Source of the DNA: a virus
Virus record (IMG/VR): IMGVR_UViG_3300045988_116681
Location: 48,632-112,631 of that record
Strand: one strand, 5' to 3'
DNA length: 64,000 nt
The notes beneath the pieces are model-generated. The model saw only the letters and a program-made list of their open reading frames with translations. It was not told the origin of the DNA and did not search any database. Below are positions 2,312 to 52,407 of the stretch, in pieces (position 1 is the stretch's first letter; each line of letters starts with the position of its first letter). The translations under genes were made by a program, and so were the position numbers.

Positions 2312-3274
2312 TCACATTGATTTGCGGTCTTTGAACTCTGCGAGTTTGTGGTCTGCATACATGGTTCTGCCTTTGATTTTAGAATATCCCAAATATCCGT
2401 TCATTCTCTCAATACGAGTGATGTTTTTACTGCCACATTTAGGACATTCATCTTTATCAATGAAAGAAGCGCCACAATCTTCACAATAATCAAGCTGTAG
2501 ATTTACGCCTTCGTAGAAGCCCATATCCATTGCTCTACGAATAAGAGTTTTCATTGCTTCAATATTGTAGTCTGTAGTATAACGACAATATTGAATATTA
2601 CCACCATTGCATAGATGGAACATTGGATATTCAATATCTTGCTTTTGAATAGGTGAAATATCTTCCCATACACCACAATGGAATGAATTAGAAGTGTAAG
2701 GACGGTCAGATACGCCCTTAATAATGCCGTATTTCTTGCGGAACTGCTCGACTTGCAAACCGCAAAGGGATTCAGCAGGAGTTCCGTAAAGAGCGTATAG
2801 AATGTTGTCGATTTTCTTATACTTCTCAGCATAATCATTGATAAACTTCAAAACTTCAATGGCAAAAGTATTATCTTCAGCAATGGTTTTACCGTTATAC
2901 AGTACACTGGTTTCATTGAGTGCAGTAATACCAAAACTCATTGTCATAGGACGAAGGAAATCTTCGCCAATTTCTTCTTCTGGGTCAAAGTGACCGTTAA
3001 GGAAACCGCCTTGACAGAAAGCAAGTGGGTTAGTACCAGCTTTCTTGTGAGAAAGATAAGTAAATGTGCGCTTGTGAATAGCACGGCACATATCAAGATA
3101 ATAAGTTAGTACATCATAAAAATCCTTGTTTTCTTGCTTTGCTTTAGCAAGAATCATAGGAAAGTGAAGGGAAATTGCTCCGAGGTTACAACGCCCTTCA
3201 TATACAGGCTTGTCTTGGTCATCTGCGGGGTACATACCGCCACGCTCATACCAAGGTGAAAGATTTGCTCGACA
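2312..3274 (-). CDS. nrdD: anaerobic ribonucleotide reductase NrdD, 3' exon (C-terminal part with the glycyl-radical region)
   Basis: Begins CRANLSPW.., which completes the ..ISRMG|CR.. junction motif. Carries a C-terminal Cys4 cluster and the RMNGYLGY glycyl-radical motif. Confidence 0.85.
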   Translation of the reverse strand, partial: CRANLSPWYERGGMYPADDQDKPVYEGRCNLGAISLHFPMILAKAKQENKDFYDVLTYYLDMCRAIHKRTFTYLSHKKAGTNPLAFCQGGFLNGHFDPEEEIGEDFLRPMTMSFGITALNETSVLYNGKTIAEDNTFAIEVLKFINDYAEKYKKIDNILYALYGTPAESLCGLQVEQFRKKYGIIKGVSDRPYTSNSFHCGVWEDISPIQKQDIEYPMFHLCNGGNIQYCRYTTDYNIEAMKTLIRRAMDMGFYEGVNLQLDYCEDCGASFIDKDECPKCGSKNITRIERMNGYLGYSKIKGRTMYADHKLAEFKDRKSM

Positions 3275-4097
3275 CAAGGGAATTATATCCCTTAGACTAT
3301 ATCATAATTGTTTGGTCAATTCTTCGCGCTTCCATAGCAAGAATTGCACTTGCTATGTACTCTACTTGGTTACTTTCTGATACAACCCAAATTACATATC
3401 AGATACCCTTTTGATAGTCGTTTAACATACATATTCAAATTTGTAATTATCGAAGTAATTAGGACTTAGTTCGCCTTTTAGCACTCGCGCAATTTTGTGC
3501 CTATCCATATGTAAACATCTACCAGCTTCACGAATAGAAGTGAAATTTTGCACATTGCCTTCTTTGTTAATAGCGCGAATAGCCGTGTTGTTTTTGTGTG
3601 TTCTATTGCCACTATCCCAACCATGTTGTACATTATAAGCATTAGTACACCATTCAAGATTTTCAAGACGATTGTCTGTTTTATCAGAATTGATATGATT
3701 AACGTACTTATAATTGTTAGGATTTGGGATGAAACAATGTGCTAAGATAACATGAACTCGTTCATGTACAAAACTGTGGTCAGGTAAACTACGCATTACT
3801 TGCATATATCCATCACTGCCTTTATGTGGGGTGACTTGATTACCTGTGCGAGAGTTATAAAAGTTAAAATTTTCATCTACCAAAAATCCGTTGTATTCTT
3901 TATATTGCATTTTATCACCTTCTTTCATATAAAAAATCATTTGAATATGCTTAGCACAGCGATTATTTCATACTTTTGTATGAACCTTCCCTGTTAGCAG
4001 AGATATTAACAAACCATTTCCTGTTTGAACTTACGTTATCTCCACACCATATATTTATATGTTCACGAAGTTTTACATGGGCTATCGTGTCATTTCA
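3275..4097 (-). other. probable group I intron (823 nt) interrupting nrdD
   Basis: Exon 1 ends ..ATG GGT with T as its last base, followed directly by a stop. The insert ends in G just before TGT CGA (CR..). It carries a free-standing HNH ORF. The joined exons restore the conserved ..SRMGCRANL.. sequence. Confidence 0.65.
3422..3910 (-). CDS. NUMOD4/HNH_3 homing endonuclease (intron-encoded)
   Basis: YKEYNGFLVDENFNFYNSRTG (NUMOD4-like) and HVILAHCFIPNP..VNHINSDKTDNRLENLEWCT (HNH_3). ATG at 3910 follows AAGGTGA. Confidence 0.85.
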   Translation of the reverse strand: MQYKEYNGFLVDENFNFYNSRTGNQVTPHKGSDGYMQVMRSLPDHSFVHERVHVILAHCFIPNPNNYKYVNHINSDKTDNRLENLEWCTNAYNVQHGWDSGNRTHKNNTAIRAINKEGNVQNFTSIREAGRCLHMDRHKIARVLKGELSPNYFDNYKFEYVC

Positions 4098-9081: not shown

Positions 9082-9854
9082 TTAATCATTATTATATTTT
9101 CCTCTCCACCTAAACAACTTCTCTGTTTTCTTAGGCTGATTATTCTTATTATAGTCAAGCGTTCTTCTCAATTCCTTTTCCCAGACAACTTCAAAATCGT
9201 CTGGCGCTTCTTGCTCGGAAATAAATACAATACATCTCTTAGAAAGTTCACGCATATATTCCCAAAATTCTTCGTGGTTAAAATCGCCAGTTGTATAACC
9301 AGTGGTTTTAGCATAAGGCGGGTCACAATATACAACCGCTCCATCTGGAATATCGACTTCACGATAATCAAGACAAGTAAAGTTGGCGTTTTGCACACCT
9401 TGTAAGTCACGAAGTAAGCTACGTTCCGCTCGGGCACAATAATTGTCACCTCGTTTATTACTTGCCAATCCACCAAACCACTTACCACCAAACGAACAGC
9501 CAAAACCAACAAAACCAGCTAACGCCTTATTCTCGTCTTTGTGCTCTTTGACGTAATAGTATTCTTCTTTAGTGATAATAGAAGGTGGTGTCCAGCCAGA
9601 TTGTAAGCCTTTCCACATTTCAATCAAATATGGATGTTTGTCATTAAGAATTTTGGTTTCTGCTTTTACTTTCGCTTCAACTGCACAAGACCCACAAAAC
9701 AGACTTACGAATGTCTGCCCCCCCCAAGTTCAAGGTGTGGTTGATAACTTGTGCAATCTGAGTTGAGATACGAGATTTTCCGCCCATGTATTGCATTGTT
9801 AATTACCTCCGAAATTTGTTTAGAAATACGAGATTTACCGCCTAAGTAACGCAT
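9082..9854 (-). CDS. Dam-like (D12 class) N6-adenine DNA methyltransferase, out of frame at a G8 tract in this assembly (candidate phase-variable gene)
   Basis: The body 9082..9627 carries DPPY. Upstream there are two ATGs (9854 and 9796), each encoding M(R/Q)Y(L/M)GGKSRIS... Motif I (FVSLFCGSCAV) is reached only with G7/G10 from ATG2 or G9 from ATG1. With G8 both reading frames stop. Confidence 0.8.
9718..9725 (-). repeat. G8 homopolymer in the 5' coding region of the Dam-like methyltransferase
   Basis: Counted C8 on the plus strand. Flanks read AACTT-G8-CAGACA on the sense strand. Confidence 0.95.
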
Positions 9855-9885: not shown

Positions 9886-10605
9886 TTATCTCATTTTAGT
9901 CGCTTTGTCAATACGCTCTTTGGCGATTTCAAAATAATTTTCATCAAGTTCCATACCGATAAAATTACGATTTGTATTGGCGCAAGCTACGCCTGTACTG
10001 CCAGACCCCATACAGTTGTCGAGAACGGTCATTCCTTCATTGGTATAGGTCTTAATTAGCCATTCAAGTAGGGCTACTGGCTTCTGTGTAGGATGAACAC
10101 GACTTGCGTCACGATTGAAAGAAAGAATAGACAACGGATTTCTTTCGCCGTTCTTGCTTTCGCTCCATGCTTGTTTTCTATCACCATAATTATCTGATAG
10201 CGAACCGTTCTTTGTACGAGTATAAGGCGTACTATACCAGAATTGCTTATTATATACTGGCTTTTTCTTATAGAAGATTGCAATTTCTTCATGAGACTTT
10301 AGTGGTTTTACATTGGCGTTAAGAAAATCACAGCCACGATTTTTATTCCAGACAAGATTATAACGCCACATCTTTGTGTTAGACAGCATAAGATTAGCCA
10401 TAAACAAGCCATCACAGAATAGAGCAATTACGCCATTGTTGGTGATGATACGATTGTACTGTTCCCACAACTTATCAAATGGAACAATCGTATCCCACTT
10501 ATTTTTGGTCGAGCCATAAGGCAAATCACATAGAATCATATCCACCGACTGGGGGGGGATATGGGGCATAAGTTCAAGGCAATCGCCATTCTTAATATCA
10601 ATCAT
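9886..10605 (-). CDS. DNA methyltransferase (N6_N4_Mtase family, beta class)
   Basis: DLPY follows the N-terminal domain. The C-terminus has VLDNCMGSGSTGVA (FxGxG-like) and IGMELDENY. Confidence 0.85.
   Translation of the reverse strand: MIDIKNGDCLELMPHIPPQSVDMILCDLPYGSTKNKWDTIVPFDKLWEQYNRIITNNGVIALFCDGLFMANLMLSNTKMWRYNLVWNKNRGCDFLNANVKPLKSHEEIAIFYKKKPVYNKQFWYSTPYTRTKNGSLSDNYGDRKQAWSESKNGERNPLSILSFNRDASRVHPTQKPVALLEWLIKTYTNEGMTVLDNCMGSGSTGVACANTNRNFIGMELDENYFEIAKERIDKATKMR
10551..10558 (+). repeat. G8 (C8 on the coding strand) homopolymer in codons 15-18 of the methyltransferase
   Basis: The coding strand reads CAT ATC CCC CCC CAG. The gene is in frame (ON) as assembled. Confidence 0.95.
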
Positions 10606-10633: not shown

Positions 10634-11155
10634 TTACTTCTTTTGAATTTCTTCAAAGACAATCTGCTTTGGTAGCATCTTATGGCATACATACACACTA
10701 CTGAAAGGTGGGTTAAGGCTGGGCTTCTGGTCTGCGTAGTCCTTGAAGTAAGCCACTCTGCGGTTAAGATACATGATTTCAAACTCATTGTTCTTAAACA
10801 TATCGAATCTTCGCTGAGATTCAAACAAGCCTACAACACCCACCAACATTGCGAACGGCTTGCCAATTTCAAACAGTCGTTCCAACACTTCTGTCTTGAC
10901 GCTATAAGGCGGATTGCTGATAATCATGTCGCACTGTGGTACTGGCGTTGTGAAAAAGTCCTGACCATTATCAATGTGCGTACAGATTACCTTGTTGCCC
11001 TGTGCTTTAAGCATTTTAACAAAGTGTGATTCTTCTGTGTCAAAAGGACACCATACTGTCAGTTGGGGGGGGGCGTAAACCAAGATAGGCTTGACCGCAT
11101 AGGGCGGTGTATAGAAGTTATCATTGCCAGAGCCAGCTACTTTATCCATTTTCAT
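10634..11155 (-). CDS. N6-adenine DNA methyltransferase (NPPY motif)
   Basis: Contains ISNPPYS and an N-terminal YTPP motif. ATG at 11155 follows GGAGAG. Confidence 0.75.
   Translation of the reverse strand: MKMDKVAGSGNDNFYTPPYAVKPILVYAPPQLTVWCPFDTEESHFVKMLKAQGNKVICTHIDNGQDFFTTPVPQCDMIISNPPYSVKTEVLERLFEIGKPFAMLVGVVGLFESQRRFDMFKNNEFEIMYLNRRVAYFKDYADQKPSLNPPFSSVYVCHKMLPKQIVFEEIQKK
11065..11073 (+). repeat. G9 (C9 on the coding strand) homopolymer in the 5' part of the NPPY methyltransferase
   Basis: The coding strand reads TAC GCC CCC CCC CAA. In frame as assembled. The plus-strand flanks GTCAGTT-G9-CGTAAAC resemble those of the tract at 25553. Confidence 0.95.
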
Positions 11156-11168
11156 GATTGCTCTCTCC

Positions 11169-11624
11169 TTACTTAATCTCAATAATTTTTTCTGCGTTCC
11201 CAATTATCATATCATTGGAAACGCTTTTAACATAAAAGAAATACTTCTTTACTCCGTCCCTTACTTTGTAGATGATAAAGATATAGTCTTGTCCAAGAAC
11301 AAATGGCTCATCGTCTGTGTATTGAATGGTTTGGCTAACAACTTGTTCGTCAATGATTTCAGCGTGAGCGTCTAACCACGCTGAATCAATTTCTTCTACG
11401 CAACAAGCGGGATAAGAAAAATTTTCTGTACCGTTATAATAAGTGGTATAGTAGTCAAATTTACCGTTATTGCTCTTCTTGGCTTCTACAATATGCCCCC
11501 AATCTCCACATCGAGGAAGGATACCGAAAATAAAATCAATGCCGTCTACAGTGTCTACGAGTCTTTCGTCAAATTCTTTAGCACTTTTCAGCGCTTCTTC
11601 CCAAGGCTTAATATAAACTTTCAT
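11169..11624 (-). CDS. hypothetical protein (tandem paralog 1)
   Basis: MKVYIKPWEEALKSAKEF..; a paralog of the next gene upstream. Confidence 0.6.
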   Translation of the reverse strand: MKVYIKPWEEALKSAKEFDERLVDTVDGIDFIFGILPRCGDWGHIVEAKKSNNGKFDYYTTYYNGTENFSYPACCVEEIDSAWLDAHAEIIDEQVVSQTIQYTDDEPFVLGQDYIFIIYKVRDGVKKYFFYVKSVSNDMIIGNAEKIIEIK

Positions 11625-25552: not shown

Positions 25553-25559
25553 CCCCCCC
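25553..25559 (-). repeat. G7 homopolymer 8 nt upstream of the B4 ATG
   Basis: Sense strand reads TTCAGTT-G7-CGTAAGTA-ATG. Confidence 0.95.
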
Positions 25560-25611: not shown

Positions 25612-25656
25612 TCAACGTAAGCCCCCCCCCAGTGAAACAATGGTTTGGTTCTTCAT
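25612..25656 (-). CDS. leader ORF L6 (14 aa as assembled) containing a G9 tract
   Basis: AAGGAGG, 9 nt, then ATG. It translates to MKNQTIVSLGGGLR*, and the stop lies inside the hairpin GCTTACG-ttgagcg-CGTAAGC. Confidence 0.45.
   Translation of the reverse strand: MKNQTIVSLGGGLR
25622..25630 (-). repeat. G9 homopolymer in leader ORF L6
   Basis: Counted C9 on the plus strand. Confidence 0.95.
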
Positions 25657-30147: not shown

Positions 30148-31878
30148 TTATTCCTCCCCATACATACCCGCTCTATCGTTAATAACAAGAACTCGTAGCA
30201 AATCTTCACTCAAGTCAAGACCCTTGCCATTGCCCTTGAGATAGCCCTTGTCTACCAACTTCTTAATAGTTGCCTTGCCCCAGTCTGGAACTTCAGCAAC
30301 ACTATTATATACCTTATTATACTTGTCGTATACTTGTTCAGCAATCTTACCAGCCACTTGATTAGCAATCTTCTTTGCTTCGGACTGAGCAATAGCTGTA
30401 GTTTCTGCCTTAGTCATGTCATCAACCTTTCTAACCATTTGTAAAAATTCTGTCCATTGTTCATAGTGTTTTACAAAAGGTTCAGGACAGTTACCAACAA
30501 TAAAAGTTCTTCCCTTTTGACGAATAAGAATATATCCTGTTGGCACACTTACACACGAAACTCGTGCATTTCTTTTTTCAACACTATATTGTTTATCACC
30601 TATTGTATAATTACAAGTGGCAATATCTACACTATCATAATGATATTTTTTATAATGATTTTTAGCATGAAGAGCCTTTTTTGCCCTCATTCCATGCGTA
30701 GCACAAATAGCTTGAACAACGTCTAAATTTTTTTCAATAACGGAGCAATAATTATTTTTTGCTACGCATCCATCAACTTGTAACAATTCTTCCCAAAAAA
30801 CTTCAAATTGATTTTGTGTCATTTCAATCCAATCATAGGTAAATTGTTTATCAGATAACCATTTGCAACACCAATCATAAGTAATTTTGTCAAATTTTAC
30901 ATAAATTAGAGTACTTCCATCATTTTTATAAGAAATCTGAGGAACAATTTCCATTTCATTTAACAAAGACAGTAATCTATCAATTTTTCTTTGTCTTTTA
31001 AAATGGAACTCGATACCATAAATTGAATTAGAAGGTTTCCATCTTCTATAATGACCATCACCTTGAAGCCATACTAAAAAACGAATTTCATTGTCTGAAA
31101 GAGGTAGACCTTTATTTTCATAAAAACCGTTGGTTTTTATCATGGTTGTTCTGCCTTTGTCAAGAATCTCTTGATAAGATTTTTCTTCCCATCTCTCGTT
31201 AGCGTGATAAAAACGCGCCCACATACGGTGATTAGCAGTAGCTTCAAAATTATGGTTCTTTAGAACTTCAGCTTCGTAAGGCTCAACCACGCTACTAACA
31301 GCGCCAAAAGATAGTCTATCAGTATTAGTGTCATACTGCATAACTTCTTCTCCAACCTTAATATCTCCAAGAGCCTTCCAACCTTCTCGTGTTAGAAGTT
31401 CGGTTGAATCCAAAGGTAAACAATACTTATGCGTAACATGATAGTGCATACACACATGGTTAATATCAATACCATACTGTTCCATTAGCCACTGTACCAG
31501 CTTTACAGTGCGCTTCTGGGTTTCCATAGTAATTACATATTCACCGTTCTTCCAGTCGCTACACATTTCAATACCAATGGAATTAACGTTGCGACAGCTA
31601 TTGTAATAATAGCCTGTTTCACTACCACAATGCCATGCTGTGTTAGCAAGGTTTACAGTCTGCCAAATTTCATTCTCGTCAACAAAGAAATGTGCGCTTG
31701 CATTAAGCCCACCGCAACGAGCAAAATAATCTGCATTGTTCTTTGCAGTATCGCCCTTGCCAGCAGTAAAGTGAATAACAATCCATTGAATCTTATGCTT
31801 TACGCCATTCTTAGTTCGACCATACATGAAATTAGATTCATTACATTGCTTAAATTGAAAATAAGGTTTTTCTGCCAT
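30148..31878 (-). CDS. N-acetylmuramoyl-L-alanine amidase endolysin (Amidase_2) interrupted by an intein
   Basis: The exteins join as ..HVTHKY|CPEPF.., restoring the K.CP zinc-ligand motif. The N-extein carries the AHFFVD and GIEMC motifs. The C-terminal tail is a putative wall-binding region. Confidence 0.85.
   Translation of the reverse strand: MAEKPYFQFKQCNESNFMYGRTKNGVKHKIQWIVIHFTAGKGDTAKNNADYFARCGGLNASAHFFVDENEIWQTVNLANTAWHCGSETGYYYNSCRNVNSIGIEMCSDWKNGEYVITMETQKRTVKLVQWLMEQYGIDINHVCMHYHVTHKYCLPLDSTELLTREGWKALGDIKVGEEVMQYDTNTDRLSFGAVSSVVEPYEAEVLKNHNFEATANHRMWARFYHANERWEEKSYQEILDKGRTTMIKTNGFYENKGLPLSDNEIRFLVWLQGDGHYRRWKPSNSIYGIEFHFKRQRKIDRLLSLLNEMEIVPQISYKNDGSTLIYVKFDKITYDWCCKWLSDKQFTYDWIEMTQNQFEVFWEELLQVDGCVAKNNYCSVIEKNLDVVQAICATHGMRAKKALHAKNHYKKYHYDSVDIATCNYTIGDKQYSVEKRNARVSCVSVPTGYILIRQKGRTFIVGNCPEPFVKHYEQWTEFLQMVRKVDDMTKAETTAIAQSEAKKIANQVAGKIAEQVYDKYNKVYNSVAEVPDWGKATIKKLVDKGYLKGNGKGLDLSEDLLRVLVINDRAGMYGEE
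30490..31422 (-). mobile_element. intein (311 aa) with a LAGLIDADG homing endonuclease, inside the endolysin
   Basis: Starts CLPLDSTELLT..GDIKVGEEV (Hint N-terminus) and ends ..ILIRQKGRTFIVGN|C (Asn plus Cys+1). Two LAGLIDADG-like motifs: LVWLQGDGH and LLQVDGCV. Confidence 0.8.
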
Positions 31879-33356: not shown

Positions 33357-33406
33357 CAGCCGACACTTCCCTTCATGCCAGCCATCTCATTGCTCATATT
33401 AAATTT

Positions 33407-34588: not shown

Positions 34589-34978
34589 TTATCCAAACAC
34601 ATAATAATGAACGTTTTTTATTTTGCCACTTTGATTATTCAAATGAAAAGTTATTTTATTGTTTGAATAATCATAGTTCAAATTTTCTATGTCTATAGAA
34701 GAATATCGCACATAAGTTGGGTTGTCACCATCATATTCATAAAGTCTATATGAAAACCCCGAAGTTGAGTTGAGTGGAATCATTTGAACAAATTGCGCTC
34801 TAATTAACATAGATGACGGATTTGGAATAACCACTACTGCCATCGCTTGTGCGTCTATTGGCAATGATTGAAAATCAAAAATAGGAAGTGATACTTCATG
34901 AATGTTACTTGAATAACTACCTTCAAATGAAAAACACTTGTTTTGATTTACAAGTACAGGATTCACGATACCATTCAT
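34589..34978 (-). CDS. family A small protein (partner of B3)
   Basis: MNGIVNPVL... ATG at 34978 in a TGATG context. Confidence 0.65.
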   Translation of the reverse strand: MNGIVNPVLVNQNKCFSFEGSYSSNIHEVSLPIFDFQSLPIDAQAMAVVVIPNPSSMLIRAQFVQMIPLNSTSGFSYRLYEYDGDNPTYVRYSSIDIENLNYDYSNNKITFHLNNQSGKIKNVHYYVFG

Positions 34979-34997
34979 CAAGCCACCCCCTTGAGGG

Positions 34998-35309
34998 TCA
35001 GCCTAAGAATGTCACCAATAAGGGGTCGCTTACGTTGTTGTATTCTATCCGAACAGTGCCAACAGAATAACGAACTATCTGCACTCTTGCTGAAGTAACA
35101 CTTTGGTCTATTAAATATAATTTGTCTGCCGAAAGTAAAGGTAAATAAATCATTGCACCTATCAACGCACTTATGTTGTCTACACTTATTGTGCAAAATA
35201 AAGGTGTTACATCGAAGCCAAAAGTTAGCCCTCTGGTAATGGATTTTGCTTGCAATACTTTTAACCCGCTCATGGATTTTTCTACTTCTTGAATAATCTT
35301 TCCATCCAT
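34998..35309 (-). CDS. family B small protein (B3)
   Basis: MDGKIIQEVEKSM... ATG at 35309 in a TAATG overlap with leader L5. Confidence 0.6.
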   Translation of the reverse strand: MDGKIIQEVEKSMSGLKVLQAKSITRGLTFGFDVTPLFCTISVDNISALIGAMIYLPLLSADKLYLIDQSVTSARVQIVRYSVGTVRIEYNNVSDPLLVTFLG

Positions 35310-35410
35310 TAGTACGCCCACCTCTCTTGTTGCTCAACCGAGAGGTAATCATCGGTGGGCTTACTTGGCGTATGCCCCCCCCAGTGACGGGGAGTTTTAG
35401 TCTTAATCAT
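35309..35410 (-). CDS. leader ORF L5 (33 aa), terminating TAATG on the B3 start
   Basis: GGAGAA SD. It translates to MIKTKTPRHWGGHTPSKPTDDYLSVEQQERWAY*. Confidence 0.45.
   Translation of the reverse strand: MIKTKTPRHWGGHTPSKPTDDYLSVEQQERWAY
35375..35382 (-). repeat. G8 homopolymer in L5
   Basis: Counted C8 on the plus strand. Confidence 0.95.
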
Positions 35411-35422
35411 ATGTATTTCTCC

Positions 35423-35830
35423 TTACATATTGTCTACAATTTCATGCATCTTATCTTCTAAATGAATTGCAATGAACGATAGTAACGCCCATGCAAAGCA
35501 GAAGAATAGATTGCACTGTCCAAAAAAGAAGGTAAATGGTAAGTGGCTGTAGTCCCACACACCCATGTGTAAGATATTATTCAGCACTACACCAGTCAAT
35601 CCTTCAAGAACCGTGATAACCACAGTTCCAATTACTACTTGTTGCCATTGCTTGTATTGGTGTTTTCCTTCATTTAGCAATCCTACAATGACGAAACATA
35701 AGCCGCCGAGAACTGCCATAGTCCAGTTGGTTGGTTTACCCTTCCAAATGGTTTCGATGGCGAAGTAAATCCCGCCACCCATCACACCAAATAGCGCATG
35801 AACAAGTATTGAATTTAGTTTATGCTTCAT
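35423..35830 (-). CDS. polytopic membrane protein
   Basis: Four or more hydrophobic helices. ATG at 35830 lies just after the upstream stop. Confidence 0.55.
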   Translation of the reverse strand: MKHKLNSILVHALFGVMGGGIYFAIETIWKGKPTNWTMAVLGGLCFVIVGLLNEGKHQYKQWQQVVIGTVVITVLEGLTGVVLNNILHMGVWDYSHLPFTFFFGQCNLFFCFAWALLSFIAIHLEDKMHEIVDNM

Positions 35831-35834
35831 AGCT

Positions 35835-36521
35835 TTAAGCCAACTTAGCAAGCATAGCGTCCATCTGAGCCTTTGCAGAAGCCAATACCTTAACTTCTTG
35901 CTCTGCTAACTTACCAGTTAGTTCAGTTGCAAGGGTAATCGCTTTAACAGTTTCCTTATCCTCACAGCTATTAGCAAACTGCCGCAAAAGATTGCAATGT
36001 GTGGTCAGTTTAGTAATGAGCGTTTGCATTGCTACATACAAACTAACAATATCAGCCTTTGGATAAATCACACATTCCTTGCCGTCAGCGTGATAAGGAA
36101 ATTCCTCAACGCCCATAACAACTGCATTGAAGATGTTGCCAATGTTGGCTTGGTCGTTTGCTGTTAGGCTGAAATGTTCATCGCCGTAAGAAGTCTTAAC
36201 GTCAACGCCAGCGTAAATAGTCTGCTCAGTAGTATCATTGAGTGACTTAATAGCTTCTGCACGAACTTCTTCAATGGTCGGCTCGTATGGTGTCGGCTTA
36301 ACTTCTTCGTCTACATTGATATGAACAGCATTACCAGTACACTTCCATACCTTGTAATCAGCCTTTTCGTATGCTACCAGTAGCTTGCCATCATCAGAAG
36401 TGAACATTAGTTCATCGCCAAGTTCAATATCGTGATTGCCGTTAAGATACATAGTACATACCTTATCGTTCAGCATACCAGTAACATTGTTATATGTCTT
36501 GCCATTAGTTAGTAGTTTCAT
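35835..36521 (-). CDS. hypothetical protein (tail-fibre-associated, DUF4376-like)
   Basis: 228 aa, coupled by ATGA to the tail-fibre-like gene. The family call comes from recalled sequence patterns only. Confidence 0.5.
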   Translation of the reverse strand: MKLLTNGKTYNNVTGMLNDKVCTMYLNGNHDIELGDELMFTSDDGKLLVAYEKADYKVWKCTGNAVHINVDEEVKPTPYEPTIEEVRAEAIKSLNDTTEQTIYAGVDVKTSYGDEHFSLTANDQANIGNIFNAVVMGVEEFPYHADGKECVIYPKADIVSLYVAMQTLITKLTTHCNLLRQFANSCEDKETVKAITLATELTGKLAEQEVKVLASAKAQMDAMLAKLA

Positions 36522-36919
36522 TACTGCACCTCACCTACAACTTGAACAACAAACCCTGATTGTGGAGCAGAATTACCGCTTGTAGTAAGAGTTAGTGTGT
36601 TATTACCTGTCTGACCATAGTCTGCAAGCAGAGCGAACGCAGCTTTTTCATTTGCCGCTGTTGCCGAGTCAGAAGATGGTAGAAGATAAATGATTGGCTG
36701 ATAGCGCATTGTTTCAGCAAGACCTTGAATAGTCTGTGTCTGCTTGTAAACGCCGCCCTGTAGTGTCCAGCCAGCTTTCGTAAAGGTTGCAGTACCGAAC
36801 ACTGTTTTGCCAACTTCAAGGTTGGTTCGTGCTCCCAGCGCCGTAGTAGCGCCAGTACCGCCATCGGGGATTGAAACTGGGGTGGAAATACCCTGTCCCA
36901 GTATACCGCCAAAACCCAT
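36521..36919 (-). CDS. tail-fibre-like protein
   Basis: VSIPDGGTGATTALGARTNL matches the GGTGATTAxxAR.NLG motif that recurs at the N-termini of phage tail-fibre proteins. Confidence 0.6.
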   Translation of the reverse strand: MGFGGILGQGISTPVSIPDGGTGATTALGARTNLEVGKTVFGTATFTKAGWTLQGGVYKQTQTIQGLAETMRYQPIIYLLPSSDSATAANEKAAFALLADYGQTGNNTLTLTTSGNSAPQSGFVVQVVGEVQ

Positions 36920-36975: not shown

Positions 36976-37004
36976 ATTATACCACATCCTTATACACTTG
37001 TCAA
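36976..37004 (-). promoter_or_regulatory. sigma-A-type promoter
   Basis: TTGACA-17-TATAAT. Confidence 0.7.
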
Positions 37005-41201: not shown

Positions 41202-41209
41202 CCCCCCCC
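41202..41209 (-). repeat. G8 homopolymer 8 nt upstream of the B2 ATG
   Basis: Sense strand reads GCGAGTT-G8-CAGATTAA-ATG. Confidence 0.95.
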
Positions 41210-41243: not shown

Positions 41244-41294
41244 TCACCGTGTAAGCCCCCCCCAAGTGAAACGGAGGTTTGGTAAATTGAACAT
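41244..41294 (-). CDS. leader ORF L7 (16 aa as assembled)
   Basis: AAAGGAGGA SD. It translates to MFNLPNLRFTWGGLTR*. Confidence 0.45.
   Translation of the reverse strand: MFNLPNLRFTWGGLTR
41256..41263 (-). repeat. G8 homopolymer in L7
   Basis: Counted C8. Followed by the hairpin GCTTAC-acggtgat-GTAAGC. Confidence 0.95.
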
Positions 41295-47652: not shown

Positions 47653-48912
47653 TTACATTTTTATTGTTTGAATCATTTGCGTAGTTCTTGCTGTAATTCT
47701 TTTACATCTTTGGAGTTTTGGTGTTTTATATCCTCTTGGCAAATAAGAAAAATTAAGACGGTTTCCTTCAAAATCCATTAAAACGACTTGCCCTTGTATA
47801 CCTCTACCTTTAATATAACATTCTACTCCAAAATATCTGACTTTATCAAATTTTCTGAACCCGTTAATTTTTGTTGTGGTTATACGCCTTTCAGACCGAA
47901 CACCTTTTGTTTGCTGAAAGTCGCCTTCGGGAACACATTTCTTTTTATAAAGATTGGTATTTATTGTAAAATTTTTACCTTGTGTCGCTATTACGCAAGC
48001 ATCATAATAATGTTCTTTATCCACTTTTAATTGCAAACGATTAAACTTAGTAATATATCCATAAGTCTCTATTGCTTGCGGATATAATCTAAAAAGCTGT
48101 GTTCGTATACTATTCATTTGAGTGGCAAATTTGAGAACACCTTTCGCTTTTCCTTCTTGCTTGAGAATTATTTTCCCATTGTGTAATTTTTTATGACAAG
48201 TATGACAGAGAGTTATCAGATTGTTTTCTTCGTCAGACCCACCTTGGCTACGAAAAATTATATGATGAACTTCCAATCTTTTATCTTTATGTTTATTTTT
48301 ACAATATTGACAAGTATAGTTATCACGATTAAGCACCTTTGCTTTTGTGTTTTCAAACCCATAATTGACTCCTTTTTGATACCCCCAATGTCGAATTTCA
48401 GCGTTAGCAAGCAAAGGGTTTTTCAACAAATGAGTATCAAATTGGCTTGTTTCAAATACTATTTCAGAAATAGGCAAAATACTTTTAATAAATTCTATTT
48501 CTTTCACATGACTATACAATTTACTTACCATTGTTGGGCTAAACCGATTTTTTCTAAAAGAGTTAGCACGATTTAACCATCTTGGTTTTCTATAACGAGT
48601 TTTACGACTTCTTCTGTTTCTACGATAAGAAGCTCTACGAGTCATTTTATTAGTAATATTATTTCTTACTATTACTTCTGACATATATACTATCTTTCCC
48701 TTATCCGTAGCCACAGCCGTACCAAAAGTTCCGCTTCCAGTATCAACACCCAAAGTCAATTTTTGAATATAATTTGTAGAATCGTTAAGCAGTTTAATCG
48801 TAAAAGGTTCACGCCTTTTTACTTTTGCTTTACCTTGTTTAAGTAATAATCTTGCAATTACATTTGTGCAAGGCATTAAGGGCTTGTTGTTTTTAGAAAC
48901 TACATAAACCAT
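47653..48912 (-). CDS. iscB: IscB RNA-guided nuclease (PLMP, split RuvC, HNH)
   Basis: KPLMPC (PLMP), LGVDTGSGTFG (RuvC-I), Arg-rich bridge helix RRASYRRNRRSRKTRYRKPRW, EIVFETSQFD (RuvC-II), CQYC..HHIIFRSQGGSDEENNLITLCHTCH (HNH), HYYDACVIA (RuvC-III). Confidence 0.9.
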   Translation of the reverse strand: MVYVVSKNNKPLMPCTNVIARLLLKQGKAKVKRREPFTIKLLNDSTNYIQKLTLGVDTGSGTFGTAVATDKGKIVYMSEVIVRNNITNKMTRRASYRRNRRSRKTRYRKPRWLNRANSFRKNRFSPTMVSKLYSHVKEIEFIKSILPISEIVFETSQFDTHLLKNPLLANAEIRHWGYQKGVNYGFENTKAKVLNRDNYTCQYCKNKHKDKRLEVHHIIFRSQGGSDEENNLITLCHTCHKKLHNGKIILKQEGKAKGVLKFATQMNSIRTQLFRLYPQAIETYGYITKFNRLQLKVDKEHYYDACVIATQGKNFTINTNLYKKKCVPEGDFQQTKGVRSERRITTTKINGFRKFDKVRYFGVECYIKGRGIQGQVVLMDFEGNRLNFSYLPRGYKTPKLQRCKRITARTTQMIQTIKM

Positions 48913-49169
48913 GATAAGTCTCCTTATAAATACTCTGTCTTATGACAGGTGATGCGTACTTTGTCTCACTATTACCATGAGATTGTTCCGACTTCAACTC
49001 GACAATGATATAAAGGCTTTTAAGTATATATCACAAGGCTATGCTTACTCTGACCTAACTTAAATATATACGATAGAGCGATGGTCTGTTGCGTCAACCA
49101 AAGGTATCATGACCTAAATATCGTAGCTATTATTTCTAATAACTAAGTCTGGCAGACTGTTTAACAGAA
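48913..49169 (-). ncRNA. candidate omegaRNA of IscB
   Basis: A structured non-coding stretch lying directly upstream of iscB, the position where omegaRNAs are encoded. I cannot confirm the fold by eye. Confidence 0.45.
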
Positions 49170-49254
49170 GCCCACCACTCTTAATTGAGAGGTGGGCGGT
49201 CTGCGGAGGTGAAAACCATGAAAAGCAAACGCCTTTCTTATGGCACGATATGGG

Positions 49255-49329
49255 TGGAGCGCTATGGCGTAATCGAAACGCCATCTTCAGTTTGGAAAAC
49301 TGAGGTTCTTACCATTAAACTAATAGCGC
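49255..49329 (-). tRNA. tRNA-Gly(UCC)
   Basis: Manual fold: acceptor GCGCTAT/ATAGCGC, anticodon arm TCAGT-ttTCCaa-ACTGA, T arm GGCGT-ttcgatt-ACGCC, discriminator U, encoded CCA. Confidence 0.8.
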
Positions 49330-49675: not shown

Positions 49676-49751
49676 TGGTCTACCATCGCAGGCTCGAACT
49701 GCGGACTTCTTGATTAAAAGTCAAGTGCTCTACCAACTGAGCTAATGGTAG
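49676..49751 (-). tRNA. tRNA-Lys(UUU)
   Basis: Acceptor CTACCAT/ATGGTAG, D arm GCTC..GAGC, anticodon arm CTTGA-ctTTTaa-TCAAG, T arm CGCAG-ttcgagc-CTGCG, encoded CCA. Confidence 0.85.
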
Positions 49752-50577: not shown

Positions 50578-50652
50578 TGGAGCGCCACATCAGAATCGAA
50601 CTGACGTTTCCAGTTTGGGAAACTGGTGTACTAACCACTGTACGAGTGGCGC
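50578..50652 (-). tRNA. tRNA-Gly(CCC)
   Basis: Acceptor GCGCCAC/GTGGCGC, anticodon arm CCAGT-ttCCCaa-ACTGG, T arm GTCAG-ttcgatt-CTGAT, discriminator U, encoded CCA. Confidence 0.8.
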
Positions 50653-52321: not shown

Positions 52322-52407
52322 TGGTCGCCCAACTGGGGGTCGAACCCAGACGCTTTTCAGCAACGGATTTTGAATCCGCATCGTATACCAAATTCCGGCA
52401 TTGGGCG
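52322..52407 (-). tRNA. tRNA-Leu(CAA), type II with a long variable arm
   Basis: Acceptor CGCCCAA/TTGGGCG, anticodon arm GCGGA-ttCAAaa-TCCGT, variable arm GCTGAAAAGC, T arm CTGGG-ttcgacc-CCCAG, encoded CCA. Confidence 0.75.

Follow-up and report, generated by a model that had tools for sequence, protein, structure and literature searches.

The viral record IMGVR_UViG_3300045988_116681 of IMG/VR harbors, within the stretch of 64,000 nucleotides (nt) analyzed here (positions 48,632 to 112,631 of the record, hereafter the window, whose numbering is used throughout), a compact set of overlapping reading frames that we call the B3 locus. A short leader open reading frame (ORF) carrying a run of G residues precedes two small genes, B3 and A3, and the genes of the region are all encoded on the minus strand. 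Related loci are labelled L001–L023. The features of the B3 locus are as follows.

35419..35424, minus strand: Shine–Dalgarno (SD) sequence of the leader, AAGGAG, recognized by sequence, 8 nt before ATG 35410
35309..35410, minus strand: leader mini-ORF L5, 33 amino acids (aa) as assembled, MIKTKTPRHWGGHTPSKPTDDYLSVEQQERWAY; its TAA and the B3 ATG overlap as TAATG
35375..35382, minus strand: G8 tract, the putative hypermutable switch, in the context CACT-G8-CAT
35361..35363, minus strand: early TAA, the presumed OFF position, reached with tract length 6, 9 or 12 and lying 11 nt past the tract
35321..35348, minus strand: hairpin at the ribosome-binding site (RBS) of B3 in minimum free energy (MFE) folds, UUACCUCUC pairing with GAGAGGUGG; the loop includes GGTTGAGCAACAA
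34998..35309, minus strand: B3 gene, 103 aa, fast-evolving, predicted all-beta
34978..35374, minus strand: the track, which is the −1 frame of B3, with no stop codon between the tract and TGA 34980..34978 (TGATG on A); a mechanical ORF listing gives it as 34978..35352
34966..35016, minus strand: long hairpin predicted at the start of A, in which the 3′ end of B3, including its TGA, pairs with the SD and AUG of A
34589..34978, minus strand: A gene (A3), 129 aa, MNGIVN..., of a small paralog family with a conserved M-N/D-G-I/K-V/I N-terminus

The reading frames were traced by substituting the tract with G6 to G11 and translating each version. With G8 or G11, the leader terminates at TAA 35311..35309, which overlaps ATG 35309 of B3. 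With G7 or G10, a product of 143/144 aa follows the −1 frame across B3 for about 394 nt and stops at TGA 34980..34978, overlapping ATG 34978 of A, and with G6 or G9 translation stops at TAA 35363..35361. The leader is never fused to B3 or A at any tract length; all frames stop at or before a start codon. The B3 locus thus does not have the classical intragenic layout, in which the repeat lies inside the regulated ORF and the OFF state is a truncated protein. It has instead the stop–start overlaps of translational coupling, TAATG at B3 and TGATG at A, and such overlaps recur in all of the sibling cassettes described below. The initial annotation had placed the leader, the G8 tract and the TAATG at these same coordinates and had led G7 and G10 into a track open across B3 and G9 to an early TAA; the tracing reproduced every one of these assignments.

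Neither the tract nor the open −1 frame is expected by chance. G/C runs of at least 7 form 13 tracts in the window (28 overlapping matches), as compared with 1.0 match expected, and G8 at 35375-35382 is long enough to slip, the usual lower bound for G/C tracts of contingency loci being about 7. The −1 frame of B3 contains no stop codon, versus 9.4 expected under synonymous resampling with phage codon usage and 6.3 under codon shuffling, and zero was reached in 0/3000 replicates (P(0) < 1/3000). None of 7374 segments of 100 codons taken from the 33 long ORFs of the window is stop-free in this frame, and the A-type and simple-cassette genes nearby contain 12–20 stops in it. Codon choice in B3 follows the same pattern, as a third-position T never stands before AA/AG/GA codons (0/24, versus 27/79 elsewhere), and in the lone allele that creates such a T (GAC AAA to GAT ATA) the next codon has changed too, which compensates for it. 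The −1 frame of B3 is under selection to stay open.

Openness of this frame in homologs had been named in advance by the initial annotation as the test of its proposal, and the proposal passed. Metagenome assemblies contain 25 B3 homologs. The comparison covered 18 fetched loci with a B3 homolog, which comprise 9 distinct coding sequences of 71–100% aa identity, and in 18/18 no stop interrupts the −1 frame before +329, where it terminates in TGATG on the start of A. The property extends to genes that are not B3. L001 has an unrelated gene of 55 aa in place of B3, and there too the track, 76 codons long when counted from its first ATG, is open and ends on A; L003 and L018 have other unrelated genes in the B position with the same open −1 frame. 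The B-position gene of L007 (5330-5730) has an in-frame TAA, yet its track is intact to the start of A. L013 (3490-3900) carries a 1-nt indel in an A run that swaps the B and track frames midway through a B2-like gene, such that translation begun at the B ATG crosses into the track for its 3′ portion and ends on A, and ribosomes coming from the leader in the track frame would meet a TAA 94 nt past the tract. Altogether, the B-position proteins fall into six BLASTP families with 19 distinct members, all with zero −1 stops where six to thirteen are expected per gene, and for these 19 proteins a constant 22 nt (25 nt in B4) separates the B stop from the A start.

The surroundings of the frame are likewise conserved. 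In related loci that include it, the leader outside the tract is almost invariant, with few variable positions in ~100 nt. The first 5-6 codons (ATGAAYGGNATYGT, MNGIV) and the preceding junction (34976-34990 in the window) are kept across unrelated cassette genes at all cassette starts and in loci L007–L021. The gene A behind B3 differs among strains, being swapped for family members of 123–131 aa, which together with the conserved junction suggests cassette exchange by recombination at that site.

Tract length varies among these loci. Lengths of 7, 8, 9, 11 and 12 are found at L5 in loci with a B3 homolog, and L001 has G9 at this leader. The window, L004, L005 and L006 show 0 mismatches over about 3900 aligned positions except at the tracts, which are 8/12/11/8 long at L5 and 8/9/8/8 at the next cassette; the repeat is hence polymorphic between otherwise identical genomes. 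Independent assemblies of the same strain agree on tract lengths (L008 and L009, L013 and L014, L016 and L017, L020 and L021), which argues against random homopolymer error. Across 14 genomes, the loci with a B and an A gene are found in the B state 9 times, in the A-via-track state 5 times and in the OFF state 7 times, so that all three positions occur, and simple cassettes are ON in 7 and OFF in 30 cases. The combination of states differs in each genome.

Computed folds place the starts of cassette genes in RNA structure. Their MFE is −16.1 kcal/mol, versus −9.2 kcal/mol in 43 control starts of the window (P = 3e-5), and the paired probability of positions −18..+3 is 0.66 versus 0.47 in controls (P = 9e-5), which amounts to predicted occlusion of the RBS as in coupled genes. 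Leader start regions are structured like control genes. At B3, CCTCTC (35340-35345) and GAGAGG (35321-35326) enclose a loop with TTGAGCAA (35330-35337), as the initial annotation had described, and in the single-sequence MFE fold the stem is extended to 9 base pairs (bp), UUACCUCUC/GAGAGGUGG, with z = −2.7. The helix at the start of A has −20.8 kcal/mol for 57 nt, and its inner stem is CCCU/GGGG here versus CUCC/GGAG in L013, a compensatory change. Anti-SD hairpins of sibling cassettes show further compensatory changes, namely ACCUCC-GAAA-GGAGGU versus CACUCC-GAAA-GGGGUG, and GCUGGCA/UGUCGGC versus GUUGACAC/GUGUCAAC. A ribosome finishing B3 or the track would open the helix at the start of A, and one that stops 11 nt past the tract would open nothing.

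On this evidence, the B3 locus is likely to be a contingency locus of a phage, whose repeat occupies a leader ORF of its own and is read out by translational coupling, with translation of B3 and A depending on the leader. Polymerase slippage would alter the length of the G tract and with it the frame in which leader ribosomes exit. At lengths of 2 mod 3 (G8, G11), the ribosome would cross the B3-RBS hairpin and terminate at TAATG, turning B3 on by unmasking, by re-initiation or by both. Ribosomes finishing B3 would stop 22 nt before the A start, within the masking helix, and A would probably be made too. Because the SD and AUG of A pair with the B3 3′ end, the B position probably turns A on as well, and the three states would be OFF, A only and B plus A. 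At lengths of 1 mod 3 (G7, G10), the ribosome would follow the −1 frame for ~394 nt to TGATG, and A would be made without B3; the −1 frame would be kept stop-free solely to carry the ribosome to A. At lengths of 0 mod 3 (G6, G9, G12), the stop 11 nt past the tract would leave the hairpins closed, with B3 and A off or at a basal level. The proteins would then serve as variable host-interaction modules used for bet-hedging.

Several observations weigh against this interpretation. B3 and A have SDs of their own and are likely to be translated to some extent independently of the leader. The G run is a perfect ribosomal slippery site, and part of the frame choice may be made at the RNA level. RNAalifold with seven B3-leader alleles gave no double-sided covariation in the B3 hairpin and returned a consensus other than the SD hairpin, in an alignment that conceals a one-base register shift in one allele; allele changes in the hairpin are tolerated via G-U pairs only. 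The simple cassettes are OFF in 30/37 cases and the L5 leader in 7/13 genomes (counting L001), and mostly OFF states would be equally expected if the cassettes were of little use. Tract lengths are taken from assemblies, and heterogeneity within populations is inferred only from contigs that break at tracts. Such breaks, with contig ends at or beside a G tract in L009, L011, L012, L020 and L021, would fit tract lengths that differ within the sampled populations, and would also fit poorly covered G runs.

The B3 locus is one of about ten such switches, and the window contains ten leader tracts. The sibling switches and the other tracts and elements connected with them are listed below.

34505, 33920, 33428 and 63993 (cut): simple cassettes, each consisting of a leader, a tract and one masked gene
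B1/A1 (two tracts), B2/A2, B3/A3 and B4/A4 (two tracts): B/A cassettes
41256-41263 and 41202-41209: two tracts in series at B1
25622-25630 and 25553-25559: two tracts in series at B4
34557-34565/34457-34465, 33992-34000/33886-33894 and 33496-33504/~33389-33399: arms of a long-range helix, present also in L003 and L007 cassettes
9718-9725, 10551-10558 and 11065-11073: intragenic G/C tracts near the 5′ ends of three DNA methyltransferase genes
9886..10605: N6_N4_Mtase gene, C8, in frame
10634..11203: EcoRI-methylase-like gene, C9, in frame
49255-49329, 50578-50652 and 52322-52407, minus strand: phage tRNA-Gly(CCC), tRNA-Gly(UCC) and tRNA-Leu(CAA); Gln(UUG) and Lys(UUU) tRNAs are also present

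About 80 tract cassettes from 20 loci were surveyed. In each simple cassette, only one frame ends on the gene start, with ATGA, TGATG or TAATG in the survey and, in the window, with ATGA or TGATG 39–87 nt past the tract, and the remaining two frames stop within 2–19 nt of the tract. All B/A loci of the 20 have a track of 250–409 nt ending on A, except the L013 indel mutant. At B1 and B4, a 6-bp hairpin (CTTAC...GTAAG) immediately follows the first tract, and from this layout the first tract appears to gate access to the second, which would pick B or A. The methyltransferase tracts have classical phase-variable layouts, presumably directed against host restriction; a D12/Dam-like gene is interrupted at its G8 tract, and a length of G7 or G10 would make it whole. 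We lean towards viewing the system as a modular frame-addressed switch, in which one leader repeat routes ribosomes among cistrons and a whole gene is kept −1 stop-free as a conduit. About ten switches and three phase-variable methyltransferases, with the switches on one transcript, could give a single phage genome thousands of heritable expression states of fast-evolving modules that may bind receptors.

Simple cassettes possess an additional long-range structure. The sequence TTGAGCAA(Y) forms the 3′ arm of a 9–15-bp helix, 24–40 nt after the tract, and the 5′ arm, (R)TTGCTCAA, lies upstream of the leader SD, so that the two arms bracket the leader SD and ATG, the tract and the early stops. 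Its flanks covary, for example CUCAUUGCUCA/UGAGCAAUGAG versus UUCCAUUGCUCAAAU/AUUUGAGCAAUGGAA, with one G-U pair tolerated. At the B2 locus, the TTGCTCAA/TTGAGCAA arms make a local hairpin with the leader SD in its loop. The B3 locus has the 3′ arm only, shown in the hairpin loop, and no upstream partner of TTGAGCAA better than chance (5–7 bp) was found there; Rfam likewise has no match at the B3 locus. Invertible DNA with TTGCTCAA/TTGAGCAA as inverted repeats was considered and rejected, since the arms allow G-U pairing and covary in the manner of RNA, and since the B3 locus is one-armed.

Among other explanations of the B3 locus, an effect on polarity or messenger stability is unlikely. Leader or track ribosomes would shield the polycistronic mRNA from Rho-dependent termination or RNase, and tract length would set mRNA survival. 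The whole block does look like a single ~5-kb transcript, and a stop-free track would keep the RNA covered when B3 is untranslated. Left unexplained, however, are the exact stop–start overlap of the track and of every ON frame, the fixed distance of 22 nt between the B stop and the A ATG, and the specific masking of start regions; moreover, the downstream cassettes each have their own unmasked leader start, and polarity would need to be reset each time.

Recoding at the RNA level, with the G run as a programmed frameshift or transcriptional slippage site that gives fixed B3/A ratios and makes DNA length variation incidental, is quite improbable. The string G GGG GGG fits the X XXY YYZ pattern, as formally does any run of at least 7 G, and the hairpin right after the first tract of the two-tract loci (B1, B4) would suit a frameshift site. 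In most simple cassettes, moreover, the modal length G8 is an OFF length, an oddity if the OFF state is silent. Yet the tract is the sole varying site between otherwise identical genomes, with five lengths at L5, and the L5 fold has no stable helix 5–9 nt past the tract. The frames give no fusion proteins and end exactly on start codons, and the same tracts occur inside three methyltransferase genes in the classical on/off layout. GGG and UUG, the codons of the 'UUG GGG GGG' tract context, are read by the phage tRNA-Gly(CCC) and tRNA-Leu(CAA), and the former should lessen slippage at hungry GGG codons.

It is very improbable that the track is an ordinary overlapping gene with a functional product of 124–144 aa, even though it is a long same-strand ORF open in all relatives. 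Ratios of nonsynonymous to synonymous polymorphism (pN/pS; Nei–Gojobori method, eight alleles, leaving aside L007 with its indel) are 0.56 for B3, 0.98 for the track frame and 0.09 for the neighboring membrane-protein gene, so that the track does not evolve as an overlapping gene would. Synonymous divergence is 0.19 in B3 versus 0.28 in the membrane-protein gene, as expected if silent sites in B3 are constrained. R, K, C and H make up 33% of the track peptide, the track has neither an SD nor a start of its own and can be entered from the leader only, and where B is replaced (L001, L003, L007) the track sequence is replaced with it and only openness is kept. The track is probably a conduit, and its peptide evolves neutrally. 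It is scarcely credible, finally, that the tract differences are homopolymer sequencing or assembly errors and the frame relations a coincidence: lengths do come from assemblies only and several contigs break at tracts, but in assemblies of Illumina type, with contig names in SPAdes/MEGAHIT style, the differences reach +3 and +4 G, tract lengths coincide between independent assemblies of a single strain, and the enrichment, placement and frame logic of the tracts are sequence properties independent of exact length.

Pfam and PHROGs contain no family for any A, B or simple-cassette protein. In its AlphaFold2 model (predicted local distance difference test, pLDDT, 75.7), B3 folds into an all-beta sandwich preceded by a disordered N-terminus. 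The best PDB match of the model is the T7 gp17 tip, a weak similarity (E 0.05, template modelling score 0.50), and its best match in BFVD is a tail fibre (E 0.008); none of the matches has E ≤ 0.001. The model of A3 (pLDDT 56) was too poor for structure search. An exhaustive representative search gave only 7 clusters for the paralog S0, and A3 has only 8 homologs, which precludes a deep alignment. From these searches the A/B paralog family appears to be confined to this phage clade. It is plausible that the A/B proteins are exchangeable host-recognition modules, possibly fibre tips; counter-defence proteins are an alternative role.

Slipped-strand phase variation is known as an on/off device within a gene or promoter, as in Neisseria opa and pilC and the Haemophilus lic genes, where a repeat near the 5′ end sets the frame. 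The tracts of Campylobacter Fletchervirus phages reportedly lie inside the coding sequence of the regulated gene as simple on/off elements and, if so, differ from the present locus with its separate leader mini-ORF, stop–start coupling and single tract addressing two genes via a stop-free frame. In lex2, a repeat in the short upstream ORF lex2A governs the downstream transferase lex2B, and by analogy this pair may be the nearest bacterial contingency case. The lex2A gene of H. influenzae is listed as phase-variable (PMC6479036). According to passages citing the original work, Fletchervirus polyG tracts are hypermutable (Sorensen et al. 2021, Cell Rep 35:109214, cited in PMC12823448, PMC10877375), and in those accounts, as proposed here, phage G tracts slip and subpopulations express different, probably host-recognition, proteins. 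The phage described here is unrelated to Fletchervirus and is a gut phage. In T2/T4 and other phages, reversible frameshift mutations occur in genes such as agt and rIIA (Gomez, Barrick & Waters 2025, bioRxiv 10.1101/2025.10.21.683753); as judged from the abstract, short homopolymers are there reversible frameshift hot spots for bet-hedging, in likeness to the present tracts, and the abstract describes no leader ORF, coupling or track.

The readout also has precedents. The arrangement of a short leader ORF and a hairpin holding the SD of the next gene is shared with ermC-type attenuation, in which leader translation remodels the hairpin; the trigger there is drug-induced ribosome stalling, reversible within the cell, whereas here it would be a heritable reading frame. 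The start of the MS2 lysis gene is reached by terminating ribosomes. Operon coupling by stop–start overlaps and by unmasking of a structured RBS is documented (PMC7538156, PMC5318159). The ATGA, TGATG and TAATG overlaps and the predicted downstream start in a helix opened by an upstream ribosome are of this kind, but ordinary coupling is constitutive, and here a mutable DNA repeat would set whether and where the ribosome arrives. A full-text literature search found no description of the combination of a leader-ORF repeat, a two-cistron frame choice and a gene stop-free in a second frame; the components are known singly, and we could not find their combination described. We know of no case in which a second, out-of-frame reading is maintained as a conduit to a different gene.

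In this design, the repeat would lie outside the genes it regulates, in a portable leader, with all three frames used for B(+A), A only or nothing, and genes within one polycistronic mRNA could switch independently. Cassettes could be exchanged without touching the switch, as the different A genes behind B3 in different strains illustrate. A coding sequence selected for the mere absence of stops in a second frame offers a clean and measurable case of selection on a non-coding property. Should the proteins prove to be modules for host recognition or counter-defence, the system would represent a new route to host-range bet-hedging in gut phages, and it could provide a compact three-state part for synthetic biology. 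Gene callers variously annotate the leader, the track or neither, and such systems are therefore invisible in standard annotation.

A megablast search with 12 kb against GenBank phages found no close relative. The nearest cultured relatives are Enterocloster bolteae phages, with 39% identity in a PolC-like polymerase. IMG/VR contains two relatives, B3 itself found no relative there, and a pattern scan of IMG/VR for the tract with TTGAGCAATG returned just the two relatives already known and two chance matches. When genome contigs were scanned for a host, the sole result was a polymerase of 29% identity on a contig of a Johnsonella metagenome-assembled genome. The phage is probably a gut phage with a Lachnospiraceae host.

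The closest cultured relative, the Enterocloster phage PMBT24 (OQ326496.2; L022/L023; 32% GC), has 8 coding-strand G runs of at least 7, among them those below, given in coordinates of its record; its published description does not mention the tracts.

47928, 49730 and 42005: G-run sites of PMBT24
78317, 84374 and 92671: further G-run sites of PMBT24

Two PMBT24 tracts lie in N-termini (MSILNRFPTGGG, MAVLNRFPTGGG) that resemble leader peptides of the window (MFNLPNLRFTWGG, MNLRFNLGG), and the leaders may therefore descend from detached N-terminal switch segments. The site at 49730 was considered as a cultured leader cassette and rejected, as its long frame is a plausible 66-aa protein and is better read as carrying a classical intragenic tract.

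The cassettes stand in a block bounded by the following features.

36976..37004, minus strand: sigma70-type promoter, TTGACA-17-TATAAT, TG-extended, by consensus match only
35423..35851, minus strand: membrane-protein gene upstream of the leader, PF06541
31903-31921: terminator-like hairpin at the far end of the cassette block

The stop codon of the membrane-protein gene overlaps the leader SD. No internal promoter or terminator of comparable strength was found between the promoter at 36976..37004 and the cassettes, and this promoter, as predicted, probably drives the whole ~5.1-kb block containing the B3 locus. At the head of the operon lie two tail-fibre-like genes, 35835..36521 and 36521..36919 (minus strand; 228 and 132 aa, with a 1-nt stop–start overlap), which are called as one 363-aa gene in L016 (1384..2475). 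Both match tail-fibre PHROGs, and lysis genes come after the cassettes. L001 has an HNH/AP2-like ORF (2592..3302, 236 aa) between the fibre-like and membrane-protein genes that is absent from the window.

Elsewhere in the window, a HEARO RNA (Rfam RF02033, 86.8 bits) at 48987-49204 (minus strand) adjoins a 419-aa HNH-endonuclease-like ORF (47653..48912, minus strand), and together they have the appearance of an IscB/OMEGA-type element in the phage genome. The Amidase_2-type endolysin (30148..31878, minus strand) is 576 aa long here and 574 aa in L003, as compared with 262–267 aa in L008/L009 and L016/L017; its extra middle part matches ribonucleotide-reductase and PhoH PHROGs, as inteins do, and is thus probably an intein insertion.

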